Positions 1,305 through 44,625 of a DNA stretch of 64,000 bases are shown here, in pieces; position 1 is the stretch's first letter; the number at the start of each line of letters is the position of its first letter. The stretch lies in assembly GCF_024502345.1 (NCBI RefSeq), contig NZ_JALDNN010000001.1, one strand, 5' to 3'. Source of the stretch: Escherichia coli (GTDB taxonomy: Bacteria; Pseudomonadota; Gammaproteobacteria; Enterobacterales; Enterobacteriaceae). Below the pieces are notes generated by a model. That model saw only the letters and a program-made list of their open reading frames with translations. It ran no database searches and was not told the DNA's origin. The position numbers and the translations under genes are program-made.

Positions 1305-1477
1305 AAAGTTCTTTGACGTTGCATTGCTGGCGTAAATGTCAGCAATGCAGCATTTCCTCACGATTCTCCTTTGACGATCGCACTTTTTGCTCGTTATGAT
1401 GGCGTCGCTAGCCTCAGTAAATCCTTACTCCGGCGGTGCGCAACCCGTGCGCGTGAACCACTATCTGAATGCTCATC

Positions 1478-2410
1478 ATGCCGAAATTTCGAGTTTCTTT
1501 ATTTAGCCTGGCCCTGATGCTGGCTGTGCCTTTGGCACCGCAGGCCGTTGCGAAAACGGCAGCCGCTACCACCGCTTCACAACCGGAAATTGCCTCCGGT
1601 AGCGCGATGATTGTTGATCTGAATACCAACAAAGTGATCTATTCGAACCACCCGGATCTGGTGCGTCCGATTGCGTCTATCAGCAAATTAATGACCGCGA
1701 TGGTTGTGCTGGATGCACGACTGCCGCTGGATGAAAAACTAAAAGTGGATATCAGCCAGACGCCGGAGATGAAAGGGGTCTATTCGCGCGTACGACTGAA
1801 TAGCGAAATCAGCCGTAAAGATATGCTGTTGCTGGCGCTGATGTCTTCAGAAAACCGCGCGGCGGCAAGCCTTGCGCACCATTATCCCGGTGGTTACAAA
1901 GCCTTTATTAAGGCAATGAATGCGAAAGCGAAATCGCTCGGAATGAACAACACGCGCTTTGTTGAACCTACCGGATTGTCGGTGCATAACGTTTCAACTG
2001 CCCGTGACTTAACCAAACTGCTCATTGCCAGCAAACAATATCCGTTGATCGGGCAGTTAAGTACTACCCGGGAAGATATGGCAACCTTCTCTAACCCGAC
2101 GTATACGCTGCCGTTCCGCAATACTAATCATCTGGTGTATCGCGATAACTGGAATATTCAGTTAACCAAAACCGGCTTTACCAATGCGGCGGGCCATTGT
2201 CTGGTGATGCGTACGGTTATCAATAATAAACCGGTGGCGCTGGTAGTGATGGACGCGTTTGGCAAATATACCCATTTTGCCGATGCCAGCCGCCTGCGTA
2301 CCTGGATTGAAACCGGTAAAGTGATGCCTGTGCCGGCAGCAGCGTTGAGCTATAAAAAACAAAAAGCCGCCCAAATGGCGGCGGCGGGGCAGACGGCACA
2401 GAACGATTAA
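1478..2410 (+). CDS. pbpG: D-alanyl-D-alanine endopeptidase PBP7
   Basis: ORF with signal peptide and SxxK-like active-site region (ASISKLMTA); start trimmed to MPKFRVSLF; synteny with dld. Confidence 0.9.
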
Positions 2411-2447
2411 GTGAATTCGGATGGCGATACTCTGCCATCCGTAATTT

Positions 2448-4163
2448 TTACTCCACTTCCTGCCAGTTTTTCCGTTTACTGGTTTTACCGATCCCCGGAT
2501 TCATGCTGTTGGTCGGATCGTTCTCGCGATAGAACTTCTGCAACGTCTCCGGTGCTTTATACAAATGACCGACGTTATGCTCGGCAGGGTACTGCGCGCC
2601 GCGCTGCTGTAGCAGTTCCAGCATCTGTTCTTTTAACGCATGCACATCCACGCCTTTTTTCACTATGTAATCCTGATGGAAGACATAGCACATAAAATGG
2701 CCGTAATAGAGCTTGTGCACCAGCTGGCTGTCGATCTCCGGCGGTAAATGCTCATACCACTCGGTGTCGTTACGCCGCAGAGCGATATCCAACGCCAGAA
2801 TGTCTTCGACTTCATCGGAATGCACCGCCTGATAACGAATTGCTGCGCCCGCAGCGGCGAAACGGTGTAAAAACGCTTTGCTGCCTTCCTCCGGCGTACA
2901 GACAAAGAAATCGCCTTCGGCCTGTTTGAAATAATCTACCAGCCACGATTTGGCTTCACCGACGCCATCGCCCGCCATTTTTAACAGCAGATGATGCTCG
3001 TATTTATCGCGCCAGTTTTTCATGCGCGGCGGTAAATGGCTGGGGAACAGGTGACCGAATTTTTGCATCGCACGGTCAGTAAAATGCGGACGGAAGAATT
3101 TCACTTTCTCCAGCATCGCATCGGTGCGTCCCTTGAGATTAAAGAAGAACGGCATCTTGTCGGTGCCTAACTTATCAATCATCAGGAAGGTGTCTTTGCC
3201 GTATTTTTCCGCAATATCGTAGATATCCCGGTGCATATATTCCCCGGCAACCGGCAGATTTTCGAAGTTAGCCAGAATATGACGGCGGATTTCGGTCAGC
3301 ACTTCCGGCTGGTTGGTGCCGATATAAAACACCTGCTGATTTTTTTCCGCCTCGAAGGTATCAAGACGTACTGCAAAGACGGCCAGCTTCCCGGCGCAAC
3401 CAGAAGATTCAAATAACCGATCCGGATCGGCGTTATAACGTGCGGGCGTGTCGGCTTCAATATCACGAACGCGGTGGACATAGTCATAATCGTGGGCGTG
3501 ACGACCATCGTGACGCACATCGTCATCTTTGATGCGATCATCATCCAGCTTGCTAAGGATCTGCTCCGGCGTTTCGCCCAGATCAATCCCCAGATGGTTC
3601 ACCAGCGTCAGTTTGCCGTCTTCATTTATACGCGCGAATAACGACATTTCGGTATACGCCGGGCCACGTTGCACCAGCGAGCCGCCGGAGTTGTTACAAA
3701 TACCACCGATGACCGATGCGCCTATACACGATGATCCAATCACTGAGTGCGGTTCGCGTCCCAGCGGTTTGAGGGCTTTTTCCAGCGAATAGAGCGTGGT
3801 GCCCGGATAGGCCAGCACCTGTTCGCCCTTGCCGAGAACGTGCAGCTTGTCGAGACGCAGGGTGCTGATGATCACGATATCGCGATCATAGTCGTTACCG
3901 TTTGGCGTCGATCCTTCGGTCAGGCCTGTATTGGCAGCCTGCATCAGAATAATTTTGTCGGCGGTGACGCAGGCTTTCAGCACCCGCCACAATTCCAGTA
4001 GTGAGCCAGGGAAAACGACAGCCAGCGCGTCGCCCTGACCAGAACGGAAGCCCTTGCGATAGCGAGCCGTTTTTGCGGGATCGGTGAGCAGGTGTGAATG
4101 ACCGACCAGACGGGCAAGTTCATTCAAAAAGGCTTTATTATCAGTTGTTGTCATGGAAGACAT
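2448..4163 (-). CDS. dld: FAD-dependent D-lactate dehydrogenase
   Basis: ORF 2448..4196 minus; start trimmed to MSSMTTTDNKAFLNEL (571 aa); synteny. Confidence 0.9.
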   Translation of the reverse strand: MSSMTTTDNKAFLNELARLVGHSHLLTDPAKTARYRKGFRSGQGDALAVVFPGSLLELWRVLKACVTADKIILMQAANTGLTEGSTPNGNDYDRDIVIISTLRLDKLHVLGKGEQVLAYPGTTLYSLEKALKPLGREPHSVIGSSCIGASVIGGICNNSGGSLVQRGPAYTEMSLFARINEDGKLTLVNHLGIDLGETPEQILSKLDDDRIKDDDVRHDGRHAHDYDYVHRVRDIEADTPARYNADPDRLFESSGCAGKLAVFAVRLDTFEAEKNQQVFYIGTNQPEVLTEIRRHILANFENLPVAGEYMHRDIYDIAEKYGKDTFLMIDKLGTDKMPFFFNLKGRTDAMLEKVKFFRPHFTDRAMQKFGHLFPSHLPPRMKNWRDKYEHHLLLKMAGDGVGEAKSWLVDYFKQAEGDFFVCTPEEGSKAFLHRFAAAGAAIRYQAVHSDEVEDILALDIALRRNDTEWYEHLPPEIDSQLVHKLYYGHFMCYVFHQDYIVKKGVDVHALKEQMLELLQQRGAQYPAEHNVGHLYKAPETLQKFYRENDPTNSMNPGIGKTSKRKNWQEVE

Positions 4164-11744: not shown

Positions 11745-13430
11745 ATGTACGATTTTAATCTAGTGTTGCTGCTGCTTCAGCAGATGTGCGTTTTTTTAGT
11801 CATTGCATGGTTAATGAGTAAAACGCCATTATTCATACCGTTAATGCAGGTCACGGTTCGTCTGCCGCATAAATTTCTCTGCTACATCGTCTTTTCCATC
11901 TTCTGCATCATGGGCACCTGGTTTGGGTTGCACATTGACGATTCTATTGCCAATACCCGTGCGATAGGCGCGGTAATGGGCGGCTTACTCGGCGGTCCGG
12001 TCGTCGGTGGGCTGGTTGGCCTGACCGGCGGGTTACATCGATATTCGATGGGGGGCATGACCGCGCTAAGTTGCATGATCTCGACCATCGTTGAAGGATT
12101 GCTCGGCGGCCTGGTACACAGCATCCTGATCCGTCGCGGGCGCACTGATAAAGTCTTTAACCCCATTACCGCCGGTGCCGTCACGTTCGTCGCTGAAATG
12201 GTGCAAATGTTGATCATCCTGGCGATCGCCCGACCTTATGAAGATGCGGTGCGTCTGGTGAGTAATATTGCTGCGCCAATGATGGTCACCAATACCGTCG
12301 GCGCGGCGCTGTTTATGCGTATATTGCTCGATAAACGCGCGATGTTTGAAAAATACACTTCGGCTTTTTCTGCCACTGCGCTGAAAGTGGCTGCCTCGAC
12401 GGAAGGCATTTTGCGCCAGGGGTTTAACGAAGTGAACAGCATGAAAGTGGCACAGGTGCTGTATCAGGAGCTGGATATTGGTGCAGTCGCGATTACCGAT
12501 CGAGAGAAATTGCTGGCCTTTACCGGAATTGGTGACGACCACCATTTACCCGGCAAACCGATATCTTCGACTTACACCTTAAAAGCGATTGAAACCGGTG
12601 AAGTGGTCTACGCTGATGGCAACGAAGTACCTTATCGTTGCTCTTTGCATCCGCAATGCAAACTGGGGTCGACGCTGGTAATTCCGTTGCGTGGTGAAAA
12701 TCAGCGGGTGATGGGCACCATCAAATTGTATGAAGCCAAAAACCGTTTATTCAGTTCAATCAACCGCACGCTGGGCGAGGGGATTGCGCAACTGCTTTCG
12801 GCGCAGATCCTCGCCGGGCAATATGAGCGGCAAAAAGCGATGCTCACCCAGTCAGAGATCAAACTGCTTCACGCCCAGGTGAACCCCCATTTTTTGTTTA
12901 ATGCGCTTAACACCATTAAAGCGGTGATCCGTCGCGACAGCGAACAGGCCAGCCAGCTGGTGCAGTATCTTTCCACTTTTTTCCGCAAAAACTTAAAGCG
13001 GCCTTCGGAGTTTGTTACTCTCGCCGACGAAATTGAACATGTGAACGCTTATCTGCAAATTGAAAAGGCGCGCTTCCAGTCGCGGTTGCAGGTCAACATT
13101 GCTATTCCGCAAGAATTATCCCAGCAGCAATTGCCCGCGTTTACCCTGCAACCGATAGTGGAAAACGCCATTAAACATGGGACATCACAACTGCTGGATA
13201 CAGGGCGAGTGGCAATCAGCGCCCGACGTGAGGGGCAACATTTGATGCTGGAGATCGAAGACAATGCCGGTTTGTATCAACCGGTAACCAATGCCAGTGG
13301 GCTGGGGATGAATCTGGTGGATAAGCGTTTACGTGAACGGTTTGGCGATGACTATGGGATAAGCGTCGCCTGTGAGCCTGATAGTTACACCCGAATAACC
13401 TTACGACTACCATGGAGGGACGAGGCATGA
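11745..13430 (+). CDS. btsS: LytS-type sensor histidine kinase (pyruvate sensing)
   Basis: N-terminal membrane domain plus GAF and histidine-kinase region; start trimmed to MYDFNLVLL; adjacent to LytTR regulator. Confidence 0.85.
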
Positions 13431-15289: not shown

Positions 15290-17293
15290 TCATCCTTGTT
15301 GCTGAAGCATGGGGAATAATTGTTCGCACAGCAAAACGCAGTTATTCATTGCTTCTACCCGTGCCTCGCTTTCTGTATTACGAAATTGTCCCAATACATG
15401 TGCCAGCCGATAAAAAACCACCGCGGTGAGGTCATTCGCCAGCAACTCTGCCTGACCAATAGCACTCTGTTCCTGATAGCGCCAGCCGTTATGGAGCAGT
15501 TGAATAAGTAATGCCTGGCAGCGCATCAGCAACTGATGAGCAGTAGACGGCACAGGCAGAACGCTGACAGAAGGTAGTGATGCCACCACAGGCGCAGTTT
15601 CTGCGTCCAGCGCCCAGGCACGAGTCTTTGTCATCATTACCTGTGGTTCCAGTGTCAATTGCCCATCAACAAAACTGACAAAGCCAGAAACCAGACACAC
15701 GGGGTCGTCTGTTTGTTGCAAAAGCGCCGCCATGCGTTCAATGGCATAAGGCGCGCTGGCTGAGGCTGGCAGTGATAACGTCAGCAGATTATCTTCACCT
15801 TCGCCGCTGATTACCTGCGCATCCAGCGTCTGGCGGCTGCTATCCCAACCGAGCGAAATACACTCAGCGACCGGCAGAATAAATAAGTTATCGACCTGAT
15901 TAAGAGGCCGTATGCAGGAGGGGGGACGCTGGCGTAAATATTCCCGCAAAGCCACAATGCCCGGCTGGCGTAACGGCGCGCTCAACATTTGCCAGGCATC
16001 AGGCGACAGCGGCACAACGCTGCTTAAGCGGTTGCGGGTAGCTAACAGCAGCTCGCCATCGGCACTGCGTTTTGCTGCTTGTGAAACAATTTGCCCACCC
16101 GCCAGTGCGCCAGCCTGAAAACTAAACAGCCGACGCGTAGCTGCCGGTGAGTTTTCCTGTTCACTTCGCGGCCAACTGCGCGAAAGGTGCAAAATACTGC
16201 CGGTGTCGGGATCGGTAAACCAGATGCGTAAACCATAATGCTCAATATCCTGCCAGCAACGCATACCTAAAGACACCAGCCGCAGATGATCAAGCTTTGC
16301 TTCTCCGGCAATGCCAGAGCCAACGACCGTGCGCCACGGCACAGGAGGAACTTCACCAACACTGTCGCGCCGCGCCATCTCTTGTGCGCAATTTAATCGA
16401 CTGTTTAATGCCGCAAGCTGACGTAAGCATTCTCCGGCATGATAGTGGCTGGCGCGGGCGTGGAAGGCATCAACGCTGGCGCGCAGTTGCCGTAGCGATT
16501 CACTCACCCATCGCCAGTTGCAGCGTTCCGCTGCTTGCTGCGCGCGGCTGAAAGCGGCCTCGTAGTGAATAAGCGGCTGGCTGATGCCGCCCAGCCATAA
16601 TGCCTGGCTTAGTTGCTGAACATATTGACGACACGTTTTGCCTTCTTCGCTGGCAAACAGATCGTCAGATGATGTGACGTGTTCGCTGCGCATCTGCCAG
16701 ATTAAATGAGTCAATTCCGGTTGCTGCGCTTTTGCCTGGACAAAGGCCTGTACTGCCAGTACGACATGTTCGCAAAGTGTGCCTTCAATACAATCACAAC
16801 GGGCGAAACGAATGCTGCTACGGGAATAAAAACGCACATCGCTCATCGGTAAGCGGGCAGAGGGAATTTCGCCCGGCGTACAGAACAACTCAATGGTGAT
16901 GCCTTTAGCGACCAGCGCCTGCGCGCGTTTGCGGGTGGCATCGGGCAGGGTAGCCAGTTCTTCCAGCCAGATTGCCGGATCCCACTCTTCTTCTTTTTCT
17001 GTGGGCTGGACGGTGGCACAAAGTCGTTGATAACTTAACACCAGCATCACGCGATGACGGCACATGCCGCTGGCCCCGCAGCTGCACTGAGCCTCTTTCA
17101 GTGCCTGGCCGTTCGCCAGCTGGGTACGGACACCGTCACTGAAGGTGGCGATTAAAGCGCCGTTCTCATGGCTGATCTCCGGGACGTTGCCATTTTCCAG
17201 TTCCTTAAGACTGCGCTTAACAAAACCGGCATTGCTTAACGCTGTCAGGGCCTGCGGTGTCAGTTCTAATAATTCCGGACGTAGTGAATTCAT
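15290..17293 (-). CDS. yehQ: SWIM zinc-finger protein YehQ
   Basis: Large ORF with CxC...CxH SWIM-like motif (AQCSCGASGMCRHRV); ATG overlaps yehP stop in ATGA arrangement. Confidence 0.75.
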   Translation of the reverse strand: MNSLRPELLELTPQALTALSNAGFVKRSLKELENGNVPEISHENGALIATFSDGVRTQLANGQALKEAQCSCGASGMCRHRVMLVLSYQRLCATVQPTEKEEEWDPAIWLEELATLPDATRKRAQALVAKGITIELFCTPGEIPSARLPMSDVRFYSRSSIRFARCDCIEGTLCEHVVLAVQAFVQAKAQQPELTHLIWQMRSEHVTSSDDLFASEEGKTCRQYVQQLSQALWLGGISQPLIHYEAAFSRAQQAAERCNWRWVSESLRQLRASVDAFHARASHYHAGECLRQLAALNSRLNCAQEMARRDSVGEVPPVPWRTVVGSGIAGEAKLDHLRLVSLGMRCWQDIEHYGLRIWFTDPDTGSILHLSRSWPRSEQENSPAATRRLFSFQAGALAGGQIVSQAAKRSADGELLLATRNRLSSVVPLSPDAWQMLSAPLRQPGIVALREYLRQRPPSCIRPLNQVDNLFILPVAECISLGWDSSRQTLDAQVISGEGEDNLLTLSLPASASAPYAIERMAALLQQTDDPVCLVSGFVSFVDGQLTLEPQVMMTKTRAWALDAETAPVVASLPSVSVLPVPSTAHQLLMRCQALLIQLLHNGWRYQEQSAIGQAELLANDLTAVVFYRLAHVLGQFRNTESEARVEAMNNCVLLCEQLFPMLQQQG

Positions 17294-18426
17294 GACTGAA
17301 GATTCTCCGCAAGCCATGATGCCAGTTCGCCCGGTGTCATGGCGGCTATTTGTGCGCCGACATTAACCAGCGCCTGGGCCGTATCGCGGTCATAGCAAGG
17401 CGTTGCTGTGCTATCGAGCGCCGCCAGTCCCAGCACTTTGATGCCGCTCTGGACACACTTTTTCACCTGATGCGTCAGCAATGATGATGAACCCCCTTCG
17501 TAAAAATCGCTCACGAGGATAATGACGCTTTTTGCTGGTTGTTCAATAAGTTGCCGACCATATTCCACGGCACTGGCGATATTGGTCCCGCCGCCCAACT
17601 GTACTTTCATTAATAACTCTACCGGATCGGCAACGTCTGCCGTGAGATCAACGACGCTTGTGTCAAACGCCACCAGATGGGTACGAATGCCGGGTAACTG
17701 CCACAAACAGGCCGCCATCACCGCAGAGTGGATCACCGAGTCCACCATCGATCCGCTTTGATCAACCAGTAAGACCAGTTGCCATTGTTCACTGTGGCGT
17801 TTAATGCGGCTGTTAAAGCGGGGGGATTCGATATACAACTTGCCGTGTTGCGGGTGCCAGTGTTGCAGGTTGGCGCGCAGAGTACTTTTGAAATCAAAGT
17901 TTCGCGCCAGTGGAATAAATGAGCGGCGACGGCGATCGCGGACACCAGAAAAAGCCTGACGAACTTCCTTTGCCAGTCGAGCCATAATTTCTTCAACAAC
18001 CTGGCGCACTATCCGGCGGGCGGCAGCCAGTACTTCGGGGTTCATCAGATGTTTGGTGTGCAAAACGGCGCGTAGCAGACTTTCAGAAGGCTGCATACGT
18101 TCCAGCACGTCGAGATTCGTCACCACATCTTCAATGCCGTAGCGCAGTACGGCATCGCTTTCCAGCCGCTCAATCACCTGTTGCGGAAACAGCGTGTGAA
18201 TACTGTTGATCCACTCAGGGGTGGTGAGATTTGAGCTACCTAATCCACCGGAACGTTCACCACGCTGGAGCCGTTCAGGATCGCGCCCATACAGCCACTC
18301 CAGCGCGTGGTCTATCTGCCGGGCGTTGTCATCCAGCCCACAAAGCGTCGTTTCTGCCGCTTCGCCAAGAATTAATCGCCAGCGTTGTAGCTCACGGGTG
18401 GTCAGAAGATCGTTCAGTTCAGACAT
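17290..18426 (-). CDS. yehP: von Willebrand factor A domain protein YehP
   Basis: vWA/MIDAS-like motif LVLLVDQSGSM; start trimmed to MSELNDLLTT (378 aa). Confidence 0.8.
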   Translation of the reverse strand: MSELNDLLTTRELQRWRLILGEAAETTLCGLDDNARQIDHALEWLYGRDPERLQRGERSGGLGSSNLTTPEWINSIHTLFPQQVIERLESDAVLRYGIEDVVTNLDVLERMQPSESLLRAVLHTKHLMNPEVLAAARRIVRQVVEEIMARLAKEVRQAFSGVRDRRRRSFIPLARNFDFKSTLRANLQHWHPQHGKLYIESPRFNSRIKRHSEQWQLVLLVDQSGSMVDSVIHSAVMAACLWQLPGIRTHLVAFDTSVVDLTADVADPVELLMKVQLGGGTNIASAVEYGRQLIEQPAKSVIILVSDFYEGGSSSLLTHQVKKCVQSGIKVLGLAALDSTATPCYDRDTAQALVNVGAQIAAMTPGELASWLAENLQS

Positions 18427-20698
18427 GGAAAACTCCCCAGTTTTGCAGCGATGCCAGTGCCTGCTGTTCGAGTTGTTGATGATGTGCAATGGCTTGTGGT
18501 GGACAATGCAACGGCATTTGCAGCGCCGAAACGGGAAGTTGCGCCAGTTGATAATGCTCAAGCACCTGATGCGCCAGCGTCCCGCGTTCTCGTGGTGGTA
18601 GCCAGGCCATCGCCGCGCGTAAATCGGGCAGGGCATTGATAAAATTGGCATCACTCAGTTGATTTAAATGACTGCTGAAACCGGCGATAAATGCCGGCTG
18701 ACAGGCCAGTTGATGGCGGGCCAGCGCCAGCAAACCGTGCAGCGCTTCGCCGGATTGTGCCGGGGATAACTGCGCCAGCATCGTCAGCGCCGCTTCGGCA
18801 CTAGCGTTGGGATGTTCCAGACGCATCAGTGCGCCAAGAGCCGCGCCGCGATCCAGCGCCGGGGCATGGATTGCCTGACTGCGTCGCTCCAGTAAGGCTA
18901 CCGCCGCAGAAAGAGAAACGCCGGGTAAATTAACGCCGCTATATAGATCGCGCAGGATATGGCAAAGCGCCTGCCAGCTATGCATGTGAGCGTGAAACTC
19001 CTTTTCATCTGGTCTGCCGTTAGATTCACACAGCCACAGCGTGCGATCGATAGCCGCGCATAACGTCGTTTGTAATATCTGCGCGCCTTGCATACCGCTA
19101 ATTTCATCCAGCCGCCATAAGGCATATAGCACTTCCAGCGCCTGGCCCATTTCGGCAAATTGATTTTCCTGGGCGATTAATAATGTGAGTTGCTCCAGTA
19201 ATTGTTGACTGAAGGACGCCAGACCCGCTAACGCCGCCTGGCTAAGACATGTGGTGATACTGCCGATTCCACCCGCGTCCAGCATATCGGTTTCTAATTT
19301 ATGGCGTGCGGCTTCCTGGAGTGTGGCACCAAAGCAGGCGGCCTCAATCAATGCCGCATGCTGGCTAAGCGGGCGGGTTAATTTCCAGCGTTCTTCACCG
19401 TTGCCTGCAAGTGTCAGTGTGCTTCCCTGCTGGCGTACAATCCCTGGGATCTCCAGTATTGCCAGCCGATGTAACACCTGACTTTGCGCTAGTCCATTGG
19501 GGTTAAAGCGATTTAAGGTAAGCTCCGCCGGAAGAGAGATTGCGGTACGTTCCAGTTCGCAGGTGACATCTTTTGGCAGAGGCGGTTGTGGCGTAGAAGG
19601 GGCAAGTTTACCGAATCCGTCACCCGCTAATGTGTCTATCAACGTTAGCAGAATCGGATCGGTATCGGGATGAATAACGCCGCGATAGCTCCATGGCAAC
19701 GGCGCATTCAGGGATTCTTTAATCAGCGAGCCTGCTAAGGCATCCAGCCAGTCAGTGCGTAACGGTAGTGTATGACCGCGCAACTGTGCCAGCGCCATCG
19801 CATGCAGATGAGCGGCAGCCATATCCGCGGTCGAAGCAGGCAAGTGGTGTTGGCGCAAACGGGTAAGAACCGTTTTTAGCAGTTGTTCTCCCGCCTGCTG
19901 TAAGCCCCACTGCCAGCACCAGCTTTGCCAGACCGGGGCAGGCATTCCTGAAAGGTATCCTGCCAGCACATCAAGGCGCTTTTCACTGTAGGGTGTGAGA
20001 TAACAACCTGTAACGGCATCTGCCAGCGAGGGCAATTCTGGCTTGTTAATGTCCTGCGGACATTCGCGCCACATTTTTGCCAGTGCCGGAGCGTGCCAGC
20101 CACCGCAGACGACTAACACGTCGCCATTGTTTTGCTGCATCGCCCATGCAATCCAGCGGGCCATGAAGGCTTCGCGCTGACGATTGAGAGCATCTCCGGG
20201 GGAATCGCCCCGCAGTTGTGCAAAATAGTGCGCCAGCGCAGAGGGTAATGCAGTTTGCTGGCTTTCATCTTCGAATAAGTGATCCCACAGGGTATCGCTG
20301 TTATCCATGCGGGTGGCACGCAGCAGTAAGGTCTGGCTTTCATCTTGCGTATCAGGCGAATCGTTCTCTTCTTCACTCTGCGCCCAGCAAGGCAAATCGA
20401 TGAAGTAAGTTTATGCCTGAATACGACGTGCGGCTTGTAGCGCCTGCCACTCCGGCGAAAATTCAGCAAATGGCGTCCAGGCACCACGCCCGGGGGCCGC
20501 ACCGTCCTGATACTGGCAATAACTGTAAATAGCTACCGGAAGCTGGTGGGCTAAAAACAGTTCGTCTACCCGGTCATTAAAATCAGCCGGGCCTTCAATC
20601 AACACGTATCGTGGCCGCTGGCTTTCGATTAATGATTTGACCAGCCGGGCGCAGGCCGGGCTATGATGCCGGATGCCGACAATTAACGGCTCGCTCAT
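18419..20698 (-). pseudogene. yehM: yehM interrupted by an in-frame TAA stop at 20411..20413
   Basis: ORFs 20411..20866 and 18419..20395 are in the same frame separated by one TAA; read through they give 759 codons from MSEPLIVGIRHH. Confidence 0.7.
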
Positions 20699-20708
20699 GC
20701 ATCTTTCC

Positions 20709-21797
20709 TCACGGCAGGCGGTGGCGGGCTTGATAATAAGCCTGCCAGTGAGCTTCTTTATGTGTGGCGACACGCTGTTCGAAGTAACGGCGCAGACGAG
20801 CGCGATCTTCTTCGTTATCTTTGACGATGGTTCCGGCAATACAGTCCACCAGATCGGCTGGCTCACCTGCGCGATTCGCTAAAAACCAGGCGCGGACGCC
20901 CACAGCGTGGGCCACGTTCACGGCTTCAGCGGTGGACATAATCGCTGTTAGTGTATCCATTGACGTTTTCTTTTCGCCGTTGGCACGCAGATCGCGGAAG
21001 GTGCGGACCAGTAACTCCAGTACCGCGTCAGGCACTTTATGCGGAATACCGCTATGGGCCAGCAAACGCGCCGAAGCACTGGCGACAAGCTCCAGCTCCT
21101 GGGCGAAATCCATAATCGGAAAGACAGTTTCAAAATCGAAGCGACGCTTTAGCGCAGCACTCATTTCATTGACGCCGCGATCGCGGGTATTGGCAGTGGC
21201 AATAATATTAAAGCCTTCTCGCGCATAGAGCTGACTGGCTTCACCAGTGAGTTCCGGCACCGTCATCACCCTGTCAGAAAGCATACCTAACAGACAGTCT
21301 TGCACTTCCAGCGGTGTACGCGTTATCTCTTCAAAACGGACGATTTTGCCGTCGCGCATTCCCTGGTAAAGCGGGGCAGGGACCAGCGCTTCCGTTGATG
21401 GACCATGATTGATAAGCAGGGCGTAGTTCCAGCCGTACTTGATTTGATCTTCGGTAGTAGATGCGCCGCCCTGGATGGTTAACCCGGCATCGCCGCTAAT
21501 AGAGGTTGCCAGTAATTCAGACAGGAGAGATTTTGCGGTGCCAGGTTCCCCCACCAACATCAAACCGCGTCCGGTGGCAAGAGTGACTAACATACGTTCG
21601 ACAGCGGAGGGACTAATCACCACTTTACGGCTAATATTTTGCGCGCTATCGCCAAGGATAAAAGCACGGGCCGCAGGCAAACTTAACTGCCAACCGGGCG
21701 GGCAAGGTGCGTTATCATTTTGTTTTAATTTTGCCAGTTCATCGGCGTATAACACAGCAGCAGGCGGACGCTGCAGATGATTATTCTGCGGTGACAT
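20709..21797 (-). CDS. yehL: MoxR-like AAA+ ATPase YehL
   Basis: Walker A GEPGTAKS; start trimmed to MSPQNNHLQRP (362 aa). Confidence 0.85.
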   Translation of the reverse strand: MSPQNNHLQRPPAAVLYADELAKLKQNDNAPCPPGWQLSLPAARAFILGDSAQNISRKVVISPSAVERMLVTLATGRGLMLVGEPGTAKSLLSELLATSISGDAGLTIQGGASTTEDQIKYGWNYALLINHGPSTEALVPAPLYQGMRDGKIVRFEEITRTPLEVQDCLLGMLSDRVMTVPELTGEASQLYAREGFNIIATANTRDRGVNEMSAALKRRFDFETVFPIMDFAQELELVASASARLLAHSGIPHKVPDAVLELLVRTFRDLRANGEKKTSMDTLTAIMSTAEAVNVAHAVGVRAWFLANRAGEPADLVDCIAGTIVKDNEEDRARLRRYFEQRVATHKEAHWQAYYQARHRLP

Positions 21798-21904
21798 ATA
21801 TTCATCCCTGAAATGTATTAATGAAATAAACGATATTTTACGCGCAATAAATGTTTGGCGCATTAGTTGTTTGAGCGAAAAATATCTGGAAAGCAGATCA
21901 CAGT

Positions 21905-22000
21905 AAATAAAAAAACCTGCTGGTGAGGCAGGTTCTTTTATTTACTATTTTCAGGCCTAACACCACAGCCTGTGCAACATCGTGTTCCAACGAACGAATT
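21905..22000 (-). ncRNA. orzO: putative Orz-like antitoxin sRNA, copy 1 (ends approximate)
   Basis: Minus-strand intrinsic terminator (stem aacctgc/gcaggtt at 21914..21934 followed by U-run on minus strand); 20-nt region 21972..21991 repeated directly in the zor leader at 22138..22157, as expected for a divergent base-pairing sRNA. Confidence 0.45.
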
Positions 22001-22229
22001 ATAACCACGGCTGGACCCCGTTGCAATTAAGATAATGAGATTTATAATCCTGACTGTTGGGACGTTGCGCCGGATCGAACCTATTTCAAGTCCTGGCTAC
22101 CGGACGGGGGGTGCTGCAGGTAGTGCCCTGATCCGGAGTGCAACATCGTGGTCCAACATACGTAAACCAGTATCGACAGGCAGTGTAAGGGTAAGGTGCT
22201 GGTGTTGCGCTCCTTAATAAGGAGAGCGG

Positions 22230-22319
22230 ATGGACTCGCTGACACAAAAGTTAACCGTGCTCATTGCTGTACTGGAGCTATTAGTGGCTCTGTTACGGTT
22301 GATTGATTTGTTGAAGTAA
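22230..22319 (+). CDS. zorO: type I toxin, 29-aa hydrophobic peptide MDSLTQKLTVLIAVLELLVALLRLIDLLK
   Basis: Hand-translated small ORF with SD aaggagag upstream; matches recalled Zor toxin of E. coli O157; followed by hairpin gggggaaaaccgcttccccc. Confidence 0.75.
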   Translation: MDSLTQKLTVLIAVLELLVALLRLIDLLK

Positions 22320-22511
22320 CGGGCAAATTGAAACGCATCTAAGGGGGAAAACCGCTTCCCCCTTTAATAAAATGATTACTGTTTTTATTAATTCATCATA
22401 TAACTCATTTTTATTTATAAATTCATCGATTTTATATTCAACGCACCATTTGACCGGGATGTGAATATTTATGTTGGGCTATTGGCAAAAAATATCTGGA
22501 AAGTAGATCGC

Positions 22512-22610
22512 AGAAAATAAAAAAACCTGCTGGTGAGGCAGGTTCTTTTATTTACTACAGTGACGCTAACTTGCTGATTGTGCAACATTTCGTACCAACG
22601 AATAAATTAT
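22512..22610 (-). ncRNA. orzP: putative Orz-like antitoxin sRNA, copy 2 (ends approximate)
   Basis: Same terminator hairpin at 22524..22544; region 22580..22600 repeated in the copy-2 leader at 22746..22766. Confidence 0.45.
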
Positions 22611-22837
22611 ATCCATATCCACACTCCATTGCAATTCAGTGAGTGAGATTTATAATCCTGCCCGTTGGGAGGTTGTGCCGGATCGGACCAATTTTAAGTC
22701 CTGGCTGCCGGACGGGTGGTGCCGCAGGCGGTGCCCTGATCCGGAGAGCAACGTTTCGTACCAACATACGTAAACCAGTATCAACAGGCAGTGTAAGGGT
22801 AAGGTGCTGGTGTTGCGCTCCTTAATAAGGAGAGCGG

Positions 22838-22927
22838 ATGGACACGCTGACACAAAAGTTAACCGTGCTCATTGCCGTACTGGAGTTATTAGTGGCTCTG
22901 TTACGGTTGATTGATTTGTTGAAGTAA
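22838..22927 (+). CDS. zorP: type I toxin, 29-aa peptide MDTLTQKLTVLIAVLELLVALLRLIDLLK
   Basis: Second small ORF, one residue different from copy 1 (T3 vs S3); same SD and terminator; O/P naming of the two copies is my guess. Confidence 0.75.
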   Translation: MDTLTQKLTVLIAVLELLVALLRLIDLLK

Positions 22928-23036
22928 CGGGCAAATTGAAACGCATCTAAGGGGGAATACCGTTTCCCCCTTTAAGAAAGCTATACTCGTCATACTTCAA
23001 GTTGCATGTGCTGCGACTTTAATTATCTAGAGTATA

Positions 23037-23414: not shown

Positions 23415-25622
23415 TTAATGGAAAATGACGTCAGGTGCGCTTAACGCCTCACTCAAATCAAACACATCAAGTTCGGCAAAAGTGACGGATTTATTGTCAC
23501 GGTACACTCGAAGAGAACGGAAGCTCATTAGCGCTTTGCTATCAACATTGTAGTGGTTAAAACCGGGTGAAAACTTAAGGACCAGCCGGTACTCGCCCAG
23601 GTCATAGACAAATGCATCCTCATAGCCTGACTCCCAGCCTTTGTATCGCATTCCCATAAGCTGCCCAACGGTAGCGGATTTACCTTCCCAGCGAGTCAGG
23701 CTGTTACTGGTTGACTCGTCAGGTGTGAGCAGCACCGTGCACCGCGCCAACTGGCGAAAAGGCGGCATAATTTCGTAATCGGCAAAAAGCTGTGCAAATT
23801 CACTGCGCATTTCTACTGTCATTTCTAACGGGTGGGCAATGCCAATCAGAGCGTCCGCAGGCAGGTCAATTGGCTCATCTTGCGCATTGCAGAACTCCCC
23901 CTCTGCGGCCACACGAAAGGCGTTGAGTAAACAACGCGGTTCATTTGCCGGATAAGCCCCCCATATTAATCGCTGGGTAACCAGACGGGTAAAGGGATGA
24001 TTAACAAACAGAGAATGAAAATCTGCCAGCGACCAGCGTCGGGTGGTACGTAGGGCCGTTTCAAGACGCGGGAGCAGGTTTTTGCTCACCTGAGTGGCAT
24101 CTTTTTTTAGCCCTTTTAGTCGGGCCAGTGCCTCGGGCGCTTTCAGTTGATCGTCATCGGCGCGCAACCGGGGAACGCTTTTCTGGCGAACGTTTTGCTG
24201 ATCAAAGATAACCGGGTTGAGGTTTTCATCGAAGCGAACGGTAAACTGCCGGGGACCAAAATCAAAACTCAACGCCTGCGGATCATCAAGGCCCAGGGTT
24301 GGGACTAATCTGTCCGCTAGCTCTTCCTGGCTTAGCCCGCGATTTTCTGCGACCACCTGAAGAAATTCCGCCGCGTTATCACGTAAGGGGCGGGATTTCG
24401 CCCGTTGCGATATATGATGCAGCTGTATCAGCGCCATATCATTATTCATCAGGGTAAGGATGTTCAGGCCACTGACAGCACGGGCAGATTTGCCTTCTTG
24501 TGGCCAGCCGAGGATCTGTGTCGTTAGATCCCGTGCCGTGCTTTCGTCACCAAAGAGACTTAACGCCAGAAATGCCCAGTTGTCTTTTACGGGGGCACCA
24601 GCTTGTTGCCACGCAGTGAAGAGATCCCAGGCAAAAGCTGCCAGCGTTTGTGGCTGGCAGAACGTTTTCAGTTGTTCCAGCCCGCTATAAAAACGTCCCC
24701 CCTGGGTAAAGCGCAGCATTTCGCCGATAATTTCCAGAGCGTCATCGGTAACAGGTTGATTATTAGTGATAAGGCGCGGCCTGGACCACATTTGCGGATG
24801 CCAGAAATCAGGGGCTTTTGGAATGCGTGCCGGGTAAATCTCTATTGGACTCTGTTTAAGTAATTGTTCCAGGGCAGGCCATAGATCTGTACGCTGCCAA
24901 CGATTGGCTACAGTTTGTAGCAATTCGCCATGCCCATGTTCGTAAAGTAAACGCAGGGCAAGTAATGCAGCTTCGCTTTTATCGCTAGATTTGGTGAAGA
25001 CAAGAGGGATAAGTGCAGTAGCCGTATGTTCCGGCCATTGTAAAATCCACTGGCGAGCCAGATTACGCTGGCCCGCAAAACGCTGCCAGCAGCTTTCCTC
25101 TGCCAGAGAGAGATGCTTACGCAGTCGGAGATCGAATTCGTTATAGGTTTCTGAGCGATAACCATAGCCATAATCCTCGTCCTGATACTGCAATGTCACT
25201 ACCAGAGGATCACTCTCATAACACCGCGCAATAAACTGGCGTGCAATCACCACCTCAGTCGCATATTCCAGCCCCTCTTGTTGGACGATTTCGTCGAGCA
25301 ACTGTTGGCTGTCATTTTGCGCGATACAGGCTAGCGCCGCCATTGTCCGGGGCGGGATTGAGGGTTTGTGTTCGCCGATCAAGTTGATGGCCTGCGTGAT
25401 GGCGGACTGCCACTCCAGTGAAAAATTTTCATAACGCCAGACAATGTTTTTTTTCTTCTCAGCTTTTTGTAGCAATTCATCACCCAGTGTCTGAATGATG
25501 CTTTCAGTGATAACAGGCACTGGTTCGCCCGGCCAATTGCGATGGCTGAGTGGTGTTTTACCATTTTTATATTTCAGTTCCAGTTGGGCGTTATCAGCCA
25601 GCCACGGTAATTCCTTGTCCAT
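23415..25622 (-). CDS. yehI: DUF4132-type protein, paralog of MolR C-terminal region
   Basis: 735-aa ORF sharing long blocks with the adjacent 1264-aa ORF (LRLRKHLSLAEES; FAWDLFTAW...GPRQFTV). Confidence 0.75.
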   Translation of the reverse strand: MDKELPWLADNAQLELKYKNGKTPLSHRNWPGEPVPVITESIIQTLGDELLQKAEKKKNIVWRYENFSLEWQSAITQAINLIGEHKPSIPPRTMAALACIAQNDSQQLLDEIVQQEGLEYATEVVIARQFIARCYESDPLVVTLQYQDEDYGYGYRSETYNEFDLRLRKHLSLAEESCWQRFAGQRNLARQWILQWPEHTATALIPLVFTKSSDKSEAALLALRLLYEHGHGELLQTVANRWQRTDLWPALEQLLKQSPIEIYPARIPKAPDFWHPQMWSRPRLITNNQPVTDDALEIIGEMLRFTQGGRFYSGLEQLKTFCQPQTLAAFAWDLFTAWQQAGAPVKDNWAFLALSLFGDESTARDLTTQILGWPQEGKSARAVSGLNILTLMNNDMALIQLHHISQRAKSRPLRDNAAEFLQVVAENRGLSQEELADRLVPTLGLDDPQALSFDFGPRQFTVRFDENLNPVIFDQQNVRQKSVPRLRADDDQLKAPEALARLKGLKKDATQVSKNLLPRLETALRTTRRWSLADFHSLFVNHPFTRLVTQRLIWGAYPANEPRCLLNAFRVAAEGEFCNAQDEPIDLPADALIGIAHPLEMTVEMRSEFAQLFADYEIMPPFRQLARCTVLLTPDESTSNSLTRWEGKSATVGQLMGMRYKGWESGYEDAFVYDLGEYRLVLKFSPGFNHYNVDSKALMSFRSLRVYRDNKSVTFAELDVFDLSEALSAPDVIFH

Positions 25623-25631
25623 GCTCTTTCC

Positions 25632-28600
25632 TTATTCAAACAGGGCTTCAATATCGTTAATTAGCTCGCTGGCGGTGATGGCATCGAGTACGGAGAGCTG
25701 CGCTTCCTGTGTTGAATTACTCCCCCAGCCATAGCTTTCCGCTTTGCCTTCCCATAGCCACAGCTTGCTTAAGAGCTGCTCAGCGCTAAGTTCGGCTGGT
25801 GACATACCCACTGCAAAGCCTTCATCGATTTCCATGATTAACGACCAGCGGCCCAGAGGTTTGATCATCCAGCCGATCCAGCCTCCATCCTGTGGTTCGC
25901 CCTTTATCCAGCCTTTATTCGCCAGCCCCATTACCCGACCGCTCGGGCATTTTCTGCTTGCCCAGCGGGTCAGTTCGCTGGCATTGCGCTCGGTTTCTGT
26001 CAGGGCGTAACTGTTACGGTCGAGCTGGCGGAACGGCGGTAGCAGTTCGTAGTCGGCAAAAAGCTGCCCAAATGCGGCGGCATCCGTCGGTGATATTTCC
26101 AGAACGTGAGGAATACCAACAGAGATATCGCCTTCCGGCAGGGTGAAAAGATCATCGTCAGCGGTGCTGTAGCTGTTATCTTCCGCTACGCGAAAGCAAG
26201 CCAGTAGCTGGTTTTCGGCGCTATAAACACCCCAAATCAGACGGCGGGTTAAGTGGCGAACCAACGGATGCTCAACCAGGAAGAGCTGGAAGTTTTCCGG
26301 CGACCAGCGGCGGCGCAGGCACATGGCGGATTCCAGCCTTGCTACCTGCTGGGCGGCGACGGTACGCGCATCTTTTTTCAGCAATTTGTAGCGGTTAACC
26401 GCATCGTTCGCCTGTGATTCATCATCGCTTTTATTGGGTTTAGGTAAGTCTTTCAGGCGGCTGCCGGAAACATCACGCACAAACGGTTTTAAGGTTTCAT
26501 CAAAGCTGACGGTGAACTGGCGTGGGCCAAAATCCAGCAGCAACGAACCGTTATCATCCAGACCGAGATCCGGTGCTAACCGATCTTCAAGCTCCGCCAC
26601 TGTCAGTTCGCGACTTTCGGCAATGTCGGCAATTTTCTCTTTCGCCCGCTCCTGTAATGCTTTGAATTTCAGTTTCTGGGCAATGCCGTTAAGCTGCATC
26701 AGGGCGATATCACTACCGATAGCGGCGAGAATATCCAACCCAACGGTGGCGCGTTTATGCTGAGATTCGCCAGGCCAGGCGCGGATTAATGGCGTCAGTT
26801 TGCGGGCGGTGTCATCGTTGCCGAGAACACCTAACGCAATGAACGCCCAGCTTTCTTTCGATGGCGCGCCCGCAGTCAGCCAGGCGGTAAACAGATCCCA
26901 GGCAAATTCAGCCAGTGAGTCGGCGGTACAGGCATCTTTCACCTGCAATAATCCCGGATACAGAGCCTCTTCCTGAGGGAAGCGGAGCATTTCACCGAGG
27001 TGCTGGAGTGCGCTATCGGGCAGTGATTGGGCGTTTGCTTTTAATACCGGGCGCGTCCAGAGCGATGGCTGATAAAAGGCCGGAAGAGTGGGGATTTTTG
27101 TCGGGTGATTATCTAAGGGATCGAGCGCAAGCAGAGCGTTCACCGCGTCTGTTACTTCCGGCTGGTTATAACGCCGGGCGATTTCTTGCAGTAATGGCTG
27201 ATGACCATTTTCGGTAAGCATACGCAAGGCAGCGCGGGCGTTATCCTGTGCTTCACCGGCTTTGCCGAGCGCCGCAGGCAGCAGGCCGGTAAGGGCATGT
27301 TCCGGGTATTTCAGCAGCCAGGTGCGGGCGTCTTGTCGTAGGGTTTTGAGTTTGTTGAAGGCGCGGGCGACGGCAGGAGCTAGCTCACTCGCTGCGAAGT
27401 AATTCGTGATGGGCAAGGCTTCCTGCGGATAGCGTGTAATTGAGTTAACTAAACCAGGTAAACCTTTGAGTCCAAAATGTAACATGGCGTATTCGGTATC
27501 GGTATGTGGAGATAGAGTAAGGGCATTCCATGCTTTTACTGCTTTCTCCAGCGGCAATGTTGTCAAAATCCCCAAATGCCAATAATGCCCGGTAGGTGAA
27601 TGAAACACCTTAAATTCACTTATTAAGGTTGAATAATCTTCATTTAGCCATGCCTCAACTACCGCTTCGGGAGCTTTAATATATGTACCAGCGATCCGTC
27701 GTTGAAAACCCATCCTTGCCAACAGGTTGGTAGTACTTTCTTCATGGCTAACCGTGATGTGTTGTGAATACCAGATATATTTCGCCAAAAGTTGATTACT
27801 GATTTCTTCTGTCATATAACAGATTGGCTCAATGCCTAATGGCGCTAAATCCAGCACCGGAATCGGCGATTTTTTCTTTTTCGAAAGCCATGGTGGGGAG
27901 ACTACTATGGCAGGCAGTAGATCGGCGCAGGCATGGTTTGAGGGCTGTGTCAGTTGTTGCTGGCATGATTTCAGTACGGCAACTGCGGGTGTCGAGAGCC
28001 AGGGAAGGACCTGTTCTGCCAGTGCTGGTTGTGAGATAAGCATTGTCATTAGCATAATGCGCCAACTGTTCTCTTCTTTTTGCCCAAGAAGTTCCGTCAG
28101 TGCCGCCATTGCTGCATGTGGGAACGCAGCAATGGCTTTCGTCATCCGATCGTGACAGCGTTTAGTTTGCCCGGCTACACGTATAAGCAGTGTCAATGCG
28201 ACCGGATGATTGATATGACGCAACACATCGGCGCAGTAGTCACTTGCGGCATAGGGAGCAAATCGGGGCAGGGCTGCAACACCTTGCTCCTGTAATACGG
28301 TGGCTGACCATATCGCACCACAATAGTAATCATCAAAAATGGCATATGGCTCGTGATATTTTTCTAATGAGGCAAGAATGTGCTCATCAGTCGCCACTAT
28401 TTTTAACCACTCAAGCGAGGGTAATTTTTTTTGCCCCAGTAGACGCTGGGCAATTTCATGTGCAATTTCTGGTTTTTCGGGTAATAACAAAGCAATTAAT
28501 GGTTGCCGCCATTCTGGAATATGTGGAATTGCGGCAATAAGTTTTTGTGCACATTTTTGCCAGAGAGACTCTTCCGCCAGTGATAAATGTTTACGTAGGC

Positions 28601-29426
28601 GTAATTCAAATCTGGAATATTGCTCCAAGTAGTTAGGTGCAATGCCAGACGGCAGAATAATAATGACATTATTCGCATAATCCCATTCAATATCAATCTG
28701 TTGAAGGTGTATTATTACATCAGTAGCATATGCCAGACCGCCTTCCTGGACGATCTGATCCATAACATCCTCACGCACTTTATATCTTGTGCATTTCATT
28801 TCAAGTGCCGTGAGTACAGCCATTACTGGTGATGGTAACTGTGTTGTTTTCAGGCCGTCGATCTGACTGATCGCCTGGGCGACGGTGTTTTGCCATTCTA
28901 AAGAACAGGCGCTGAAGTCAAATGTGGCTGTTTTATTATCCCGTTGCGACACACTACAGGCTAAGCGACGTAAGTGGGTCAATTTGTCTGCTTGCTGAAC
29001 AGGAACTTCGGGAAAGCGGCGATGGCTTAACGTGGTGTGTACAACTTCGGGCGGAAAAACGACAGCAATATCTTTCGCCAGCCACGGTAAAACAGCATCT
29101 GTATTTTTGTCAGCCGCACGGGTTTCTGCTACGAAAGAGGGTTGTTCCTGAATAATGGTGGATAAGTCCGCTACCTTGAGAGAGCCCGTTACCGTTTGGG
29201 AAGGTTGCAAAGAATTATCCTTCGCTTGCTCCATATATCCCTTCTTCACCTTCTCCGCAATCAGCTTCAGTTCCGCTTTTGCCGCCGCTGCAGCATCTGC
29301 AAAGCTTTTTACCTGACTTTGCCCGTTAGTGCCGACTTTACCCCAGTTGATATGCAGCTCGTTGTCTTGCTGCTCCACCGCCCAGAATTTATGTGATTTT
29401 TCGTCCTGATAGATATAACTCTTCAT
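25632..29426 (-). CDS. molR: WGR-domain/DUF4132 protein MolR, intact
   Basis: 1264-aa uninterrupted ORF; N-terminal WGR-like motif (KFWAVEQQDNELHINWGKVGTNGQ); next to metG. Confidence 0.8.
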   Translation of the reverse strand: MKSYIYQDEKSHKFWAVEQQDNELHINWGKVGTNGQSQVKSFADAAAAAKAELKLIAEKVKKGYMEQAKDNSLQPSQTVTGSLKVADLSTIIQEQPSFVAETRAADKNTDAVLPWLAKDIAVVFPPEVVHTTLSHRRFPEVPVQQADKLTHLRRLACSVSQRDNKTATFDFSACSLEWQNTVAQAISQIDGLKTTQLPSPVMAVLTALEMKCTRYKVREDVMDQIVQEGGLAYATDVIIHLQQIDIEWDYANNVIIILPSGIAPNYLEQYSRFELRLRKHLSLAEESLWQKCAQKLIAAIPHIPEWRQPLIALLLPEKPEIAHEIAQRLLGQKKLPSLEWLKIVATDEHILASLEKYHEPYAIFDDYYCGAIWSATVLQEQGVAALPRFAPYAASDYCADVLRHINHPVALTLLIRVAGQTKRCHDRMTKAIAAFPHAAMAALTELLGQKEENSWRIMLMTMLISQPALAEQVLPWLSTPAVAVLKSCQQQLTQPSNHACADLLPAIVVSPPWLSKKKKSPIPVLDLAPLGIEPICYMTEEISNQLLAKYIWYSQHITVSHEESTTNLLARMGFQRRIAGTYIKAPEAVVEAWLNEDYSTLISEFKVFHSPTGHYWHLGILTTLPLEKAVKAWNALTLSPHTDTEYAMLHFGLKGLPGLVNSITRYPQEALPITNYFAASELAPAVARAFNKLKTLRQDARTWLLKYPEHALTGLLPAALGKAGEAQDNARAALRMLTENGHQPLLQEIARRYNQPEVTDAVNALLALDPLDNHPTKIPTLPAFYQPSLWTRPVLKANAQSLPDSALQHLGEMLRFPQEEALYPGLLQVKDACTADSLAEFAWDLFTAWLTAGAPSKESWAFIALGVLGNDDTARKLTPLIRAWPGESQHKRATVGLDILAAIGSDIALMQLNGIAQKLKFKALQERAKEKIADIAESRELTVAELEDRLAPDLGLDDNGSLLLDFGPRQFTVSFDETLKPFVRDVSGSRLKDLPKPNKSDDESQANDAVNRYKLLKKDARTVAAQQVARLESAMCLRRRWSPENFQLFLVEHPLVRHLTRRLIWGVYSAENQLLACFRVAEDNSYSTADDDLFTLPEGDISVGIPHVLEISPTDAAAFGQLFADYELLPPFRQLDRNSYALTETERNASELTRWASRKCPSGRVMGLANKGWIKGEPQDGGWIGWMIKPLGRWSLIMEIDEGFAVGMSPAELSAEQLLSKLWLWEGKAESYGWGSNSTQEAQLSVLDAITASELINDIEALFE

Positions 29427-29532
29427 CCGCGTTTCCTGTATTTATATCCAGTTATAAGCGGATGCTAGCAGTTAATGAAAAAAATTAAGAGCGTTGAACA
29501 AACAAGAAAACAACTTTAGGAATTTATAAAGA

Positions 29533-44499: not shown

Positions 44500-44625
44500 A
44501 CCAAACGACTCGGGGTGCCCTTCTGCGTGAAGGCTGAGAAATACCCGTATCACCTGATCTGGATAATGCCAGCGTAGGGAAGTCACGGACCACCAGGTCA
44601 TTGCTTCTTCACGTTATGGCAGGAG
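44500..44625 (+). promoter_or_regulatory. TPP (thi-box) riboswitch of thiMD
   Basis: ccaaacgactcggggtgcccttctgcgtgaaggctgagaaatacccgtatcacctgatctggataatgccagcgtagggaagtc directly upstream of thiM. Confidence 0.9.

Follow-up and report, generated by a model that had tools for sequence, protein, structure and literature searches.

The ochre codon in yehM and its effect

The stretch of DNA analyzed here (the window) comprises 64,000 nucleotides (nt) of the Escherichia coli contig NZ_JALDNN010000001.1 (NCBI RefSeq assembly GCF_024502345.1) and carries the yehL-yehM-yehP-yehQ operon, which encodes a MoxR-type AAA+ ATPase, a DUF5682 protein, a VWA protein, and a SWIM zinc-finger protein. The analysis showed that yehM is interrupted by a real, inherited nonsense mutation, Q96*, present in a small E. 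coli sublineage. The best explanation overall is that this mutation is genuine and inherited, is null for YehM, and is a step in the decay of the locus (probability about 0.85). Coordinates are positions in the window, and all the yeh genes discussed lie on the minus strand.

Translation of 18419..20866 on the minus strand gave AARRIQA*TYFIDLPCWAQ around the lesion, which confirmed the in-frame TAA noticed at 20411..20413 in a preliminary description made from the letters of the window. The flanking open reading frames (ORFs) form one 759-codon yehM frame, as had been described, and the stop is its codon 96. Alignment to K-12, proposed there as the way to identify the original codon, gave CAA (Gln), and the same codon was found in E. 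coli MLI023K1, the closest complete genome over the whole operon (6 of 6,574 positions different). Relative to the K-12 derivative and MLI023K1, the lesion amounts to one C>T change in the coding strand, seen as G>A at position 20413 of the plus strand. The broken gene is divided into a 95-aa N-terminal ORF and a 658-aa ORF (18419..20395) that opens at a TTG. An identical copy of the 66-mer around the stop was found in none of the ~4,900 complete RefSeq E. coli genomes with this segment, the best matches being at most 98.5%.

The look-up of the 658-aa product returned exactly two records, a 37-kb contig of NCBI assembly GCA_050022275.1 and the Logan assembly of run SRR24000611, both with TAA at the site and the same 95-aa and 658-aa gene calls. 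Compared with the window, GCA_050022275.1 has one single-nucleotide polymorphism at 22526 and SRR24000611 has one at 17343 (yehP codon 362); neither is therefore a re-deposit of the window sequence. Because the TAA recurs in two non-identical records, the allele is inherited in a small clone and did not arise from miscalled bases in a single assembly. The look-up of the 95-aa fragment gave 59 collection blocks, and two of the ten places shown carry the TAA. The other eight were rejected as Q96* carriers, since their contigs break off at codon 95/96 and what follows is wild-type C or CA.

The preliminary description had weighed inactivation of the system against a base-call error, and the recurrence of the TAA in two further public datasets favors inactivation. 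A sequencing or assembly error in an organism whose yehM is intact would be compatible with the one-base difference from the nearest genome and with the 66-mer that no complete E. coli genome matches identically. Such an error is nevertheless very improbable, given the same base and the same split gene calls in two datasets that each differ from the window elsewhere, and a C>T transition is untypical of homopolymer or indel-type errors.

The consequences for YehM were examined in the DUF5682 family, for which 2,266 representatives were collected (50% clustering of 1.84 billion proteins) and conservation was read from an 89-sequence alignment. The residues invariant within the first 260 positions are R10, H11, P14, E35, H51, E83, D101, R175, G199, and H202; H12, S13, and G200 are shared by at least 90% of the aligned sequences. 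All 88 further homologues aligned are full-length and run as single chains through the codon-96 point. In the AlphaFold 2 model of YehM (predicted local distance difference test score (pLDDT) 93, predicted template modeling score 0.90), residues ~1-260 form a compact N-terminal alpha/beta domain with a parallel beta-sheet core and the TIKI/TraB/ChaN/erythromycin-esterase fold. In the model, the stop falls between helix 82-92 and strand 96-101, inside this single domain. The 95-aa fragment retains H11 and E35 (and H12) and loses D101, R175, and G199-G200-x-H202.

No Shine-Dalgarno (SD)-like sequence was found before the codon-102 TTG or before any in-frame start within 160 codons after the stop, and a restart after the stop was rejected on this ground. 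UAA is not a recoding codon in E. coli. Because a single domain is split, no SD-linked restart is present, and UAA is not recoded, the Q96* allele is most probably null for YehM. It is highly unlikely that yehM still works, whether as two polypeptides (the 95-aa fragment and a C-terminal protein made by re-initiation) or because the ochre codon is read through or suppressed. For such residual function it can be said that the TTG, 15 nt past the stop, opens the 658-aa ORF annotated by gene callers, and that the yehL, yehP, and yehQ frames are open. However, neither the TTG nor an in-frame ATG or GTG over the next 160 codons is preceded by an SD-like sequence; the break lies between beta-sheet strands of one compact domain and parts H11/E35 from D101/R175/H202; the ochre codon is no recoding signal in this organism; and the 88 other full-length homologues are single chains at this point. 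The window has no tRNA genes, so that a suppressor tRNA inside it was rejected, and a suppressor elsewhere in the genome is possible.

The effect of the stop probably extends to the downstream genes. The four genes had been described as translationally coupled; this holds for yehM/yehP, which overlap by 8 nt, and for yehP/yehQ, which overlap by 4 nt (ATGA), but not for yehL and yehM, which are 10 nt apart. Since the starts of yehP and yehQ overlap the preceding stops, expression of YehP and YehQ is probably lowered: with the message untranslated over 2 kb, coupling of translation would be lost and Rho polarity would act.

The locus in this lineage and in other strains

The window and MLI023K1 differ at six positions in the operon, four of them derived in MLI023K1 and two in the window, namely Q96* and yehQ G626V. 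YehQ position 626 is Gly in all 66 other sequences of a 67-sequence alignment that reaches from Enterobacterales to Actinomycetota (four phyla), and in the YehQ model (pLDDT 91.8) it occupies a turn that connects two C-terminal bundle helices. The exact G626V YehQ protein was found on six contigs, with strain details from the five places shown. SRR24000611 combines G626V with yehM Q96*. SRR13336925 has G626V and an intact yehM. SRR31599313 has G626V, CAA at codon 96, and an intact yehM, but its yehP has lost 64 bp (window 17363..17417 plus a 9-bp repeat), leaving a 338-aa product. GCA_054852445.1 has G626V, CAA at codon 96, and a 2-bp yehM deletion (window 18516..18517, about codon 728), and SRR30190356 is a partial contig with G626V. 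Because strains with intact yehM also have G626V, this change is older than Q96*. The compared sequences suggest that, after G626V, at least three different yehM/yehP lesions arose in separate strains.

Upstream in the same cluster, yehI carries an in-frame internal deletion of 1,425 bp (475 codons), with the junction at about 25079..25089, where the two alignment segments overlap by 11 bp. The 735-aa yehI product is also called in GCA_050022275.1. The preliminary description was limited to the four-gene operon; the system reaches further, to yehH and yehI, and has these further lesions, YehQ G626V and the yehI deletion, while the K-12 operon is itself not intact. The yehM stop thus looks like one step in a stepwise decay of the whole locus.

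Other E. coli and Shigella lineages have also lost or broken parts of the locus. In the K-12 derivative, yehQ is annotated as a pseudogene with an internal stop (1044..3044 of the compared stretch), and the upstream DUF4132 gene molR is annotated as frameshifted with an internal stop (11875..12321 of the compared stretch). K-12 is therefore not an intact reference for the system. On 95 contigs, under S. flexneri and E. coli accessions, gene calling gives a YehM fragment of 73 aa. The genes yehM, yehL, and zorO are deleted in S. sonnei lineages 2 and 3 (PMC12795559), and the transposon TnMB1860 is inserted in the DUF4132/yeh region of ST131 sublineage L1a (PMC9334617). The yehL-yehQ operon is present at ≥80% coverage in 5,202 of 5,426 complete genomes, and yehL and yehM have been reported as H-NS-silenced (PMC3686432). 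This pattern fits a dispensable locus that is usually retained. Like the other yeh pseudogenes of E. coli and Shigella, with K-12, S. flexneri, S. sonnei, and ST131 L1a all broken, Q96* affects a dispensable gene, here by a single-nucleotide nonsense mutation; unlike them, it is absent from ~4,900 complete genomes and was found in two other datasets only.

Inactivation could also have been adaptive rather than neutral, if the system were costly or toxic, notably when unbalanced by YehQ G626V, so that yehM and yehP nulls were selected. In favor of this, the window has only two derived changes over 6.5 kb, one creating a nonsense codon and the other replacing an invariant glycine, three different yehM/yehP lesions lie on the G626V background, and K-12, S. 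flexneri, S. sonnei (PMC12795559), and ST131 (PMC9334617) show repeated loss or breakage of the locus. However, the numbers are tiny, a dispensable locus under H-NS silencing (PMC3686432) would be expected to be lost recurrently just as much, and the operon is kept in 5,202 of the 5,426 complete genomes at ≥80% coverage. Selection for these nulls thus appears unlikely.

Several points weigh against the reading of Q96* as a genuine null allele in a decaying locus. Its support as an allele comes from assembled sequences. GCA_050022275.1 and SRR24000611 may be related isolates from one study, and they are independent in the sense of non-identical sequences, not of unrelated sampling. The order of the mutations was drawn from a handful of contigs, and the 2-bp and 64-bp deletions lie in sister draft assemblies and may be assembly artefacts. 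The loss of YehP and YehQ expression is one that we infer from the gene arrangement.

Layout of the region

Gene identities and boundaries were taken from the ORF listing and translation, and domains from a Pfam search (Table 1). The identities and domain calls of the preliminary description were right: AAA_5, DUF5682, VWA_CoxE, and SWIM were found by Pfam, and the GEPGTAKS and DQSGSM motifs are present. The range that it gave for the four genes, 17290..21797, holds yehL, yehM, and yehP only; yehQ lies beyond it, at 15290..17293.

Table 1. Features of the yeh region and other elements in the window
Feature	Coordinates	Strand	Description
yehQ	15290..17293	-	667-aa SWIM zinc-finger protein, frame open; Pfam SWIM (PF04434) 7e-8, residues 56-88
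YehQ G626V	15416..15418	-	GTT (Val); derived relative to MLI023K1 and K-12
yehP	17290..18426	-	378-aa VWA (CoxE-like) protein, intact; Pfam VWA_CoxE (PF05762) 4e-72
yehP +1 frameshift cassette site	17553..17568		reads GTGGAATATGGTCGGC in the window
yehM	18419..20698	-	759-codon DUF5682 gene (Pfam); ATG start at 20698; pseudogene in this strain
yehM Q96* ochre codon	20411..20413	-	CAA>TAA; plus strand 'tta'
yehL	20709..21797	-	362-aa MoxR-type AAA+ ATPase, YehL subfamily, intact; Pfam AAA_5 (PF07728) 1e-33
Tandem type I toxin-antitoxin loci	21898..22930		zorO-orzO, zorP-orzP type; between yehL and yehK
Rfam OrzO-P small RNA match	21909..21984	-
Rfam OrzO-P small RNA match	22519..22592	-
ZorO-like ORF	22230..22319	+	29 aa
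ZorO-like ORF	22838..22927	+	29 aa
yehI	23415..25622	-	DUF4132 paralogue, 735 aa here versus 1210 aa in K-12
yehH (molR)	25632..29426	-	1264-aa WGR + DUF4132 protein (Pfam), intact
LexA-box-like CTGGATATAAATACAG	29436..29451	-	10 nt upstream of the yehH ATG
IS1	about 34449..35215		~768 bp, in chaperone gene yehC; InsB ORF 34698..35201
IS903/IS5-family element	36839..37895		1,057 bp, in usher gene yehB; transposase ORF 36871..37839
Peptidase-S11 RNA motif (Rfam)	1393..1473		upstream of pbpG
TPP riboswitch (Rfam)	44501..44597		upstream of thiM
naRNA4 (Rfam)	52443..52513

The Walker A motif GEPGTAKS of YehL occupies residues 83-90 and is kept in 77 of the 81 homologues read, and a Walker-B-like RFEEITR is kept in 73 of them; the closest solved relatives of YehL are midasin AAA domains (5e-10). 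In YehP, DQSGSM (residues 222-227) forms a complete DxSxS metal ion-dependent adhesion site (MIDAS) motif, D222-Q-S-G-S226. YehQ has two CxCxnCxH motifs, at residues 70 and 166, and C70, C72, C78, and H80 are invariant. Sequence searches with YehM, YehP, and YehQ against PDB chains gave no match.

Several further elements were observed in and around these genes. A +1 ribosomal-frameshift cassette, GTGGAGTATGGTCGGC, has been reported in yehP by FSscan (PMC2790909). At the corresponding site in the window the SD-like GGAG reads GGAA, a position that is variable according to PMC2790909. The tandem toxin-antitoxin loci between yehL and yehK belong to a ~930-bp zorO/orzO-type insert that is missing in K-12. 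The yeh fimbrial operon is interrupted by two insertion sequences, each flanked by a 9-bp duplication relative to MLI023K1, and three other Rfam matches were obtained elsewhere in the window (Table 1).

The conserved yehH-yehQ module and its possible role

A scan of species-representative genomes with the YehM alignment gave 80 loci, in Enterobacterales, Burkholderiales, Xanthomonadales, Myxococcota, and Actinomycetota. The gene order, with a WGR/DUF4132 protein (1-4 tandem copies) followed by YehL, YehM, YehP, and YehQ, holds across four phyla. A YehL homologue adjoins YehM upstream in 79 of the 80 loci, a YehP homologue lies downstream in 78 and a YehQ homologue in 76, DUF4132 genes occur in 73 (in 69 of these upstream and in the same orientation), and all five components occur together in 71. 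In Actinomycetota loci, the YehL homologue is preceded by as many as four DUF4132 paralogues in tandem, with WGR present or absent, suggesting from sequence that this component has diversified there. Natural DUF5682-VWA_CoxE fusion proteins of ~1,120-1,180 aa (P0087, P0143, P0172) argue that YehM and YehP act together physically.

The role of this MoxR-VWA module had been called uncharacterised, and the literature bears this out: one of seven MoxR subfamilies is named after YehL, which is one of the two K-12 MoxR ATPases and has no role assigned (PMC3893208), and neither DUF5682 nor DUF5691 is mentioned anywhere in the ~8 million papers searched, where gene-name searches for yehL, yehM, yehP, and yehQ were swamped by author names. 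Like the known MoxR AAA+/VWA pairs (RavA-ViaA, CbbQ-CbbO, NorQ-NorD, CoxD-CoxE, and BchI-BchD) and midasin, the yeh system has an AAA_5/MoxR protein, YehL, whose gene lies two genes upstream of a VWA gene with a complete DxSxS MIDAS motif. A rival reading would make the system a purely chaperone-like assembly factor. Unlike those pairs, the yeh system has obligatory extra partners, namely DUF5682 (759 aa, with the TIKI-like domain), SWIM, and WGR/DUF4132 proteins, and the Walker B motif of the YehL subfamily is E-E, not D-E, throughout.

The predicted fold of the YehM N-terminal domain offers a lead on its activity. Active enzymes of the TIKI superfamily have a 2His/2Glu site built from GxxH...E...GxxH elements (PMC6254334). 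In YehM, G8-x-x-H11(H12), E35, and G199-G200-x-H202 fit this arrangement, and the position of the first Glu is not acidic. The domain is of the TIKI/TraB type by fold and, as judged from the model, may be hydrolytic. With Pfam at E ≤ 10, the N-terminal domain matched DUF5682 only, with no TraB, ChaN, or Ere match, and the YehM profile against PDB sequences recovered no TIKI-superfamily member and chance helical matches only. Since no sequence profile links DUF5682 to the superfamily, the assignment is at the level of fold. YehM differs from the members of the superfamily (TIKI1/2, RRSP, EreA-C, ChaN, and HopBA1) in having no detectable profile relationship to them, no match for the first Glu of the 2His/2Glu set, and a ~500-residue helical C-terminal region after the domain. 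Two points count against the link to the superfamily: it is predicted by fold alone, without a sequence-profile match or coordinate superposition, and YehM has R-H-H where RRSP has E-x-H, so that at most three of the four catalytic positions are matched.

A search of plasmids with YehM by tblastn led to a locus on a Deinococcus taeanensis megaplasmid, with the order SWIM, DUF5691, AAA ATPase, 78-aa ORF, DUF5682, and VWA. This locus is ddrTUVWX, because the 78-codon gene between ddrV and ddrW matches the description in PMC9510100. YehL is 41% identical to DdrV over the full length (9e-78), and YehM and YehP are full-length homologues of DdrW (28% identity, 3e-36) and DdrX (33% identity, 4e-67), respectively. 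In D. deserti, few of the operons under IrrE/DdrO control are induced by radiation as strongly as ddrTUVWX, to which no function has been assigned (PMC5552922, PMC6300522); WGR and DUF4132 proteins of D. radiodurans are also DdrO-controlled (bioRxiv 10.1101/2021.07.07.451423). DdrV-DdrW-DdrX thus correspond to YehL-YehM-YehP in the same order, with a SWIM protein in the same operon. The two systems differ in that the Deinococcus SWIM gene comes first and is followed by DUF5691, whereas in E. coli the SWIM gene comes last, DUF5691 is lacking, and DUF4132 genes lie upstream; in addition, radiation induction has been shown in Deinococcus only (PMC5552922). The literature searched yielded no paper that links the yeh operon to the ddr operon.

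A second lead comes from the regulation of yehH. This gene, as molR, figures in a published list of E. coli genes known to have an SOS box (PMC6590174, Table 1 therein), and the window has a LexA-box-like sequence upstream of its ATG (Table 1). In Klebsiella grimontii, a CTG-N10-CAG box stands at the equivalent yehH position, within diverged surrounding sequence. Because the core trio is homologous to proteins of the radiation-induced ddrTUVWX operon and yehH has an SOS box, a DNA-damage-linked role is the best-supported guess for the yeh system, made from sequence comparison. Four observations go against this role. The YehQ family aligned by hhalign with DdrT and DdrU (SWIM, DUF5691) gave nothing significant outside the SWIM motif. 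Exact LexA (CTGT-N8-ACAG) or Cheo (GAAC-N4-GTTC) boxes are absent upstream of the cluster in the other taxa and not enriched there across the 80 loci, and the SOS link is therefore not general. The E. coli SOS box belongs to yehH, not to yehL. Finally, yehL and yehM are among the genes reported as silenced by H-NS (PMC3686432).

By analogy with CbbQ-CbbO, NorQ-NorD, RavA-ViaA, and midasin, a tentative mechanism can be proposed for the intact system, which we hold to be possible but doubtful. The YehL AAA+ hexamer would engage and remodel a client through the MIDAS-bearing VWA adaptor YehP, and YehM, joined to YehP by binding or by fusion, would act as a TIKI-type His/Glu hydrolase or bind the substrate. 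YehQ (SWIM) and YehH/YehI (WGR/DUF4132) would give nucleic-acid or target recognition, with expression tied to DNA damage in at least two phyla. A bolder and rather unlikely extension is that the yehH-yehQ cluster and ddrTUVWX are two forms of one widespread, undescribed DNA-damage-response machine, in which the YehL/DdrV ring and the YehP/DdrX adaptor would drive the YehM/DdrW TIKI-type hydrolase onto targets recognized by SWIM, WGR, or DUF4132 proteins, for example in the removal or proteolysis of proteins trapped on damaged DNA. If this were true, the natural null alleles of this E. coli lineage would be ready test material.

Instead of forming a DNA-damage or chaperone module, the cluster could serve against phages or in another kind of conflict. 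Its DUF4132 paralogues, diversified and in tandem (1-4 at each locus), a MoxR-VWA core with a predicted hydrolase, plasmid carriage now and then, H-NS silencing (PMC3686432), and patchy loss between lineages would all suit defense, and damage induction is also compatible with a sensor of prophage induction. However, YehL, YehM, YehP, and YehQ match no PADLOC model (PADLOC-DB v2) at E ≤ 0.01, the locus in E. coli is near-core, syntenic, and chromosomal rather than an island, and no experimental defense phenotype was found in the literature searched. A defense function is thus quite improbable, and a role linked to DNA damage is still the better-supported guess.

The yehM event itself is an ordinary lineage-specific pseudogene in a catalogued operon, and it adds one lineage to the list of E. 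coli and Shigella with a broken locus. Its breakage in many lineages speaks for a system that is not needed in the gut or in the laboratory. The locus is one of only two E. coli MoxR systems, with its role unassigned, and it is a conserved module of at least five components including WGR/DUF4132 proteins. The conserved module, the radiation-induced Deinococcus homologue, and the TIKI/TraB-type domain predicted for YehM are leads that make it approachable. Because K-12 is itself defective (yehQ stop, molR frameshift), knock-out screens in K-12 would not have shown a phenotype. The Q96* lineage is usable as a natural null, and reference work needs a strain with an intact cluster, not K-12.

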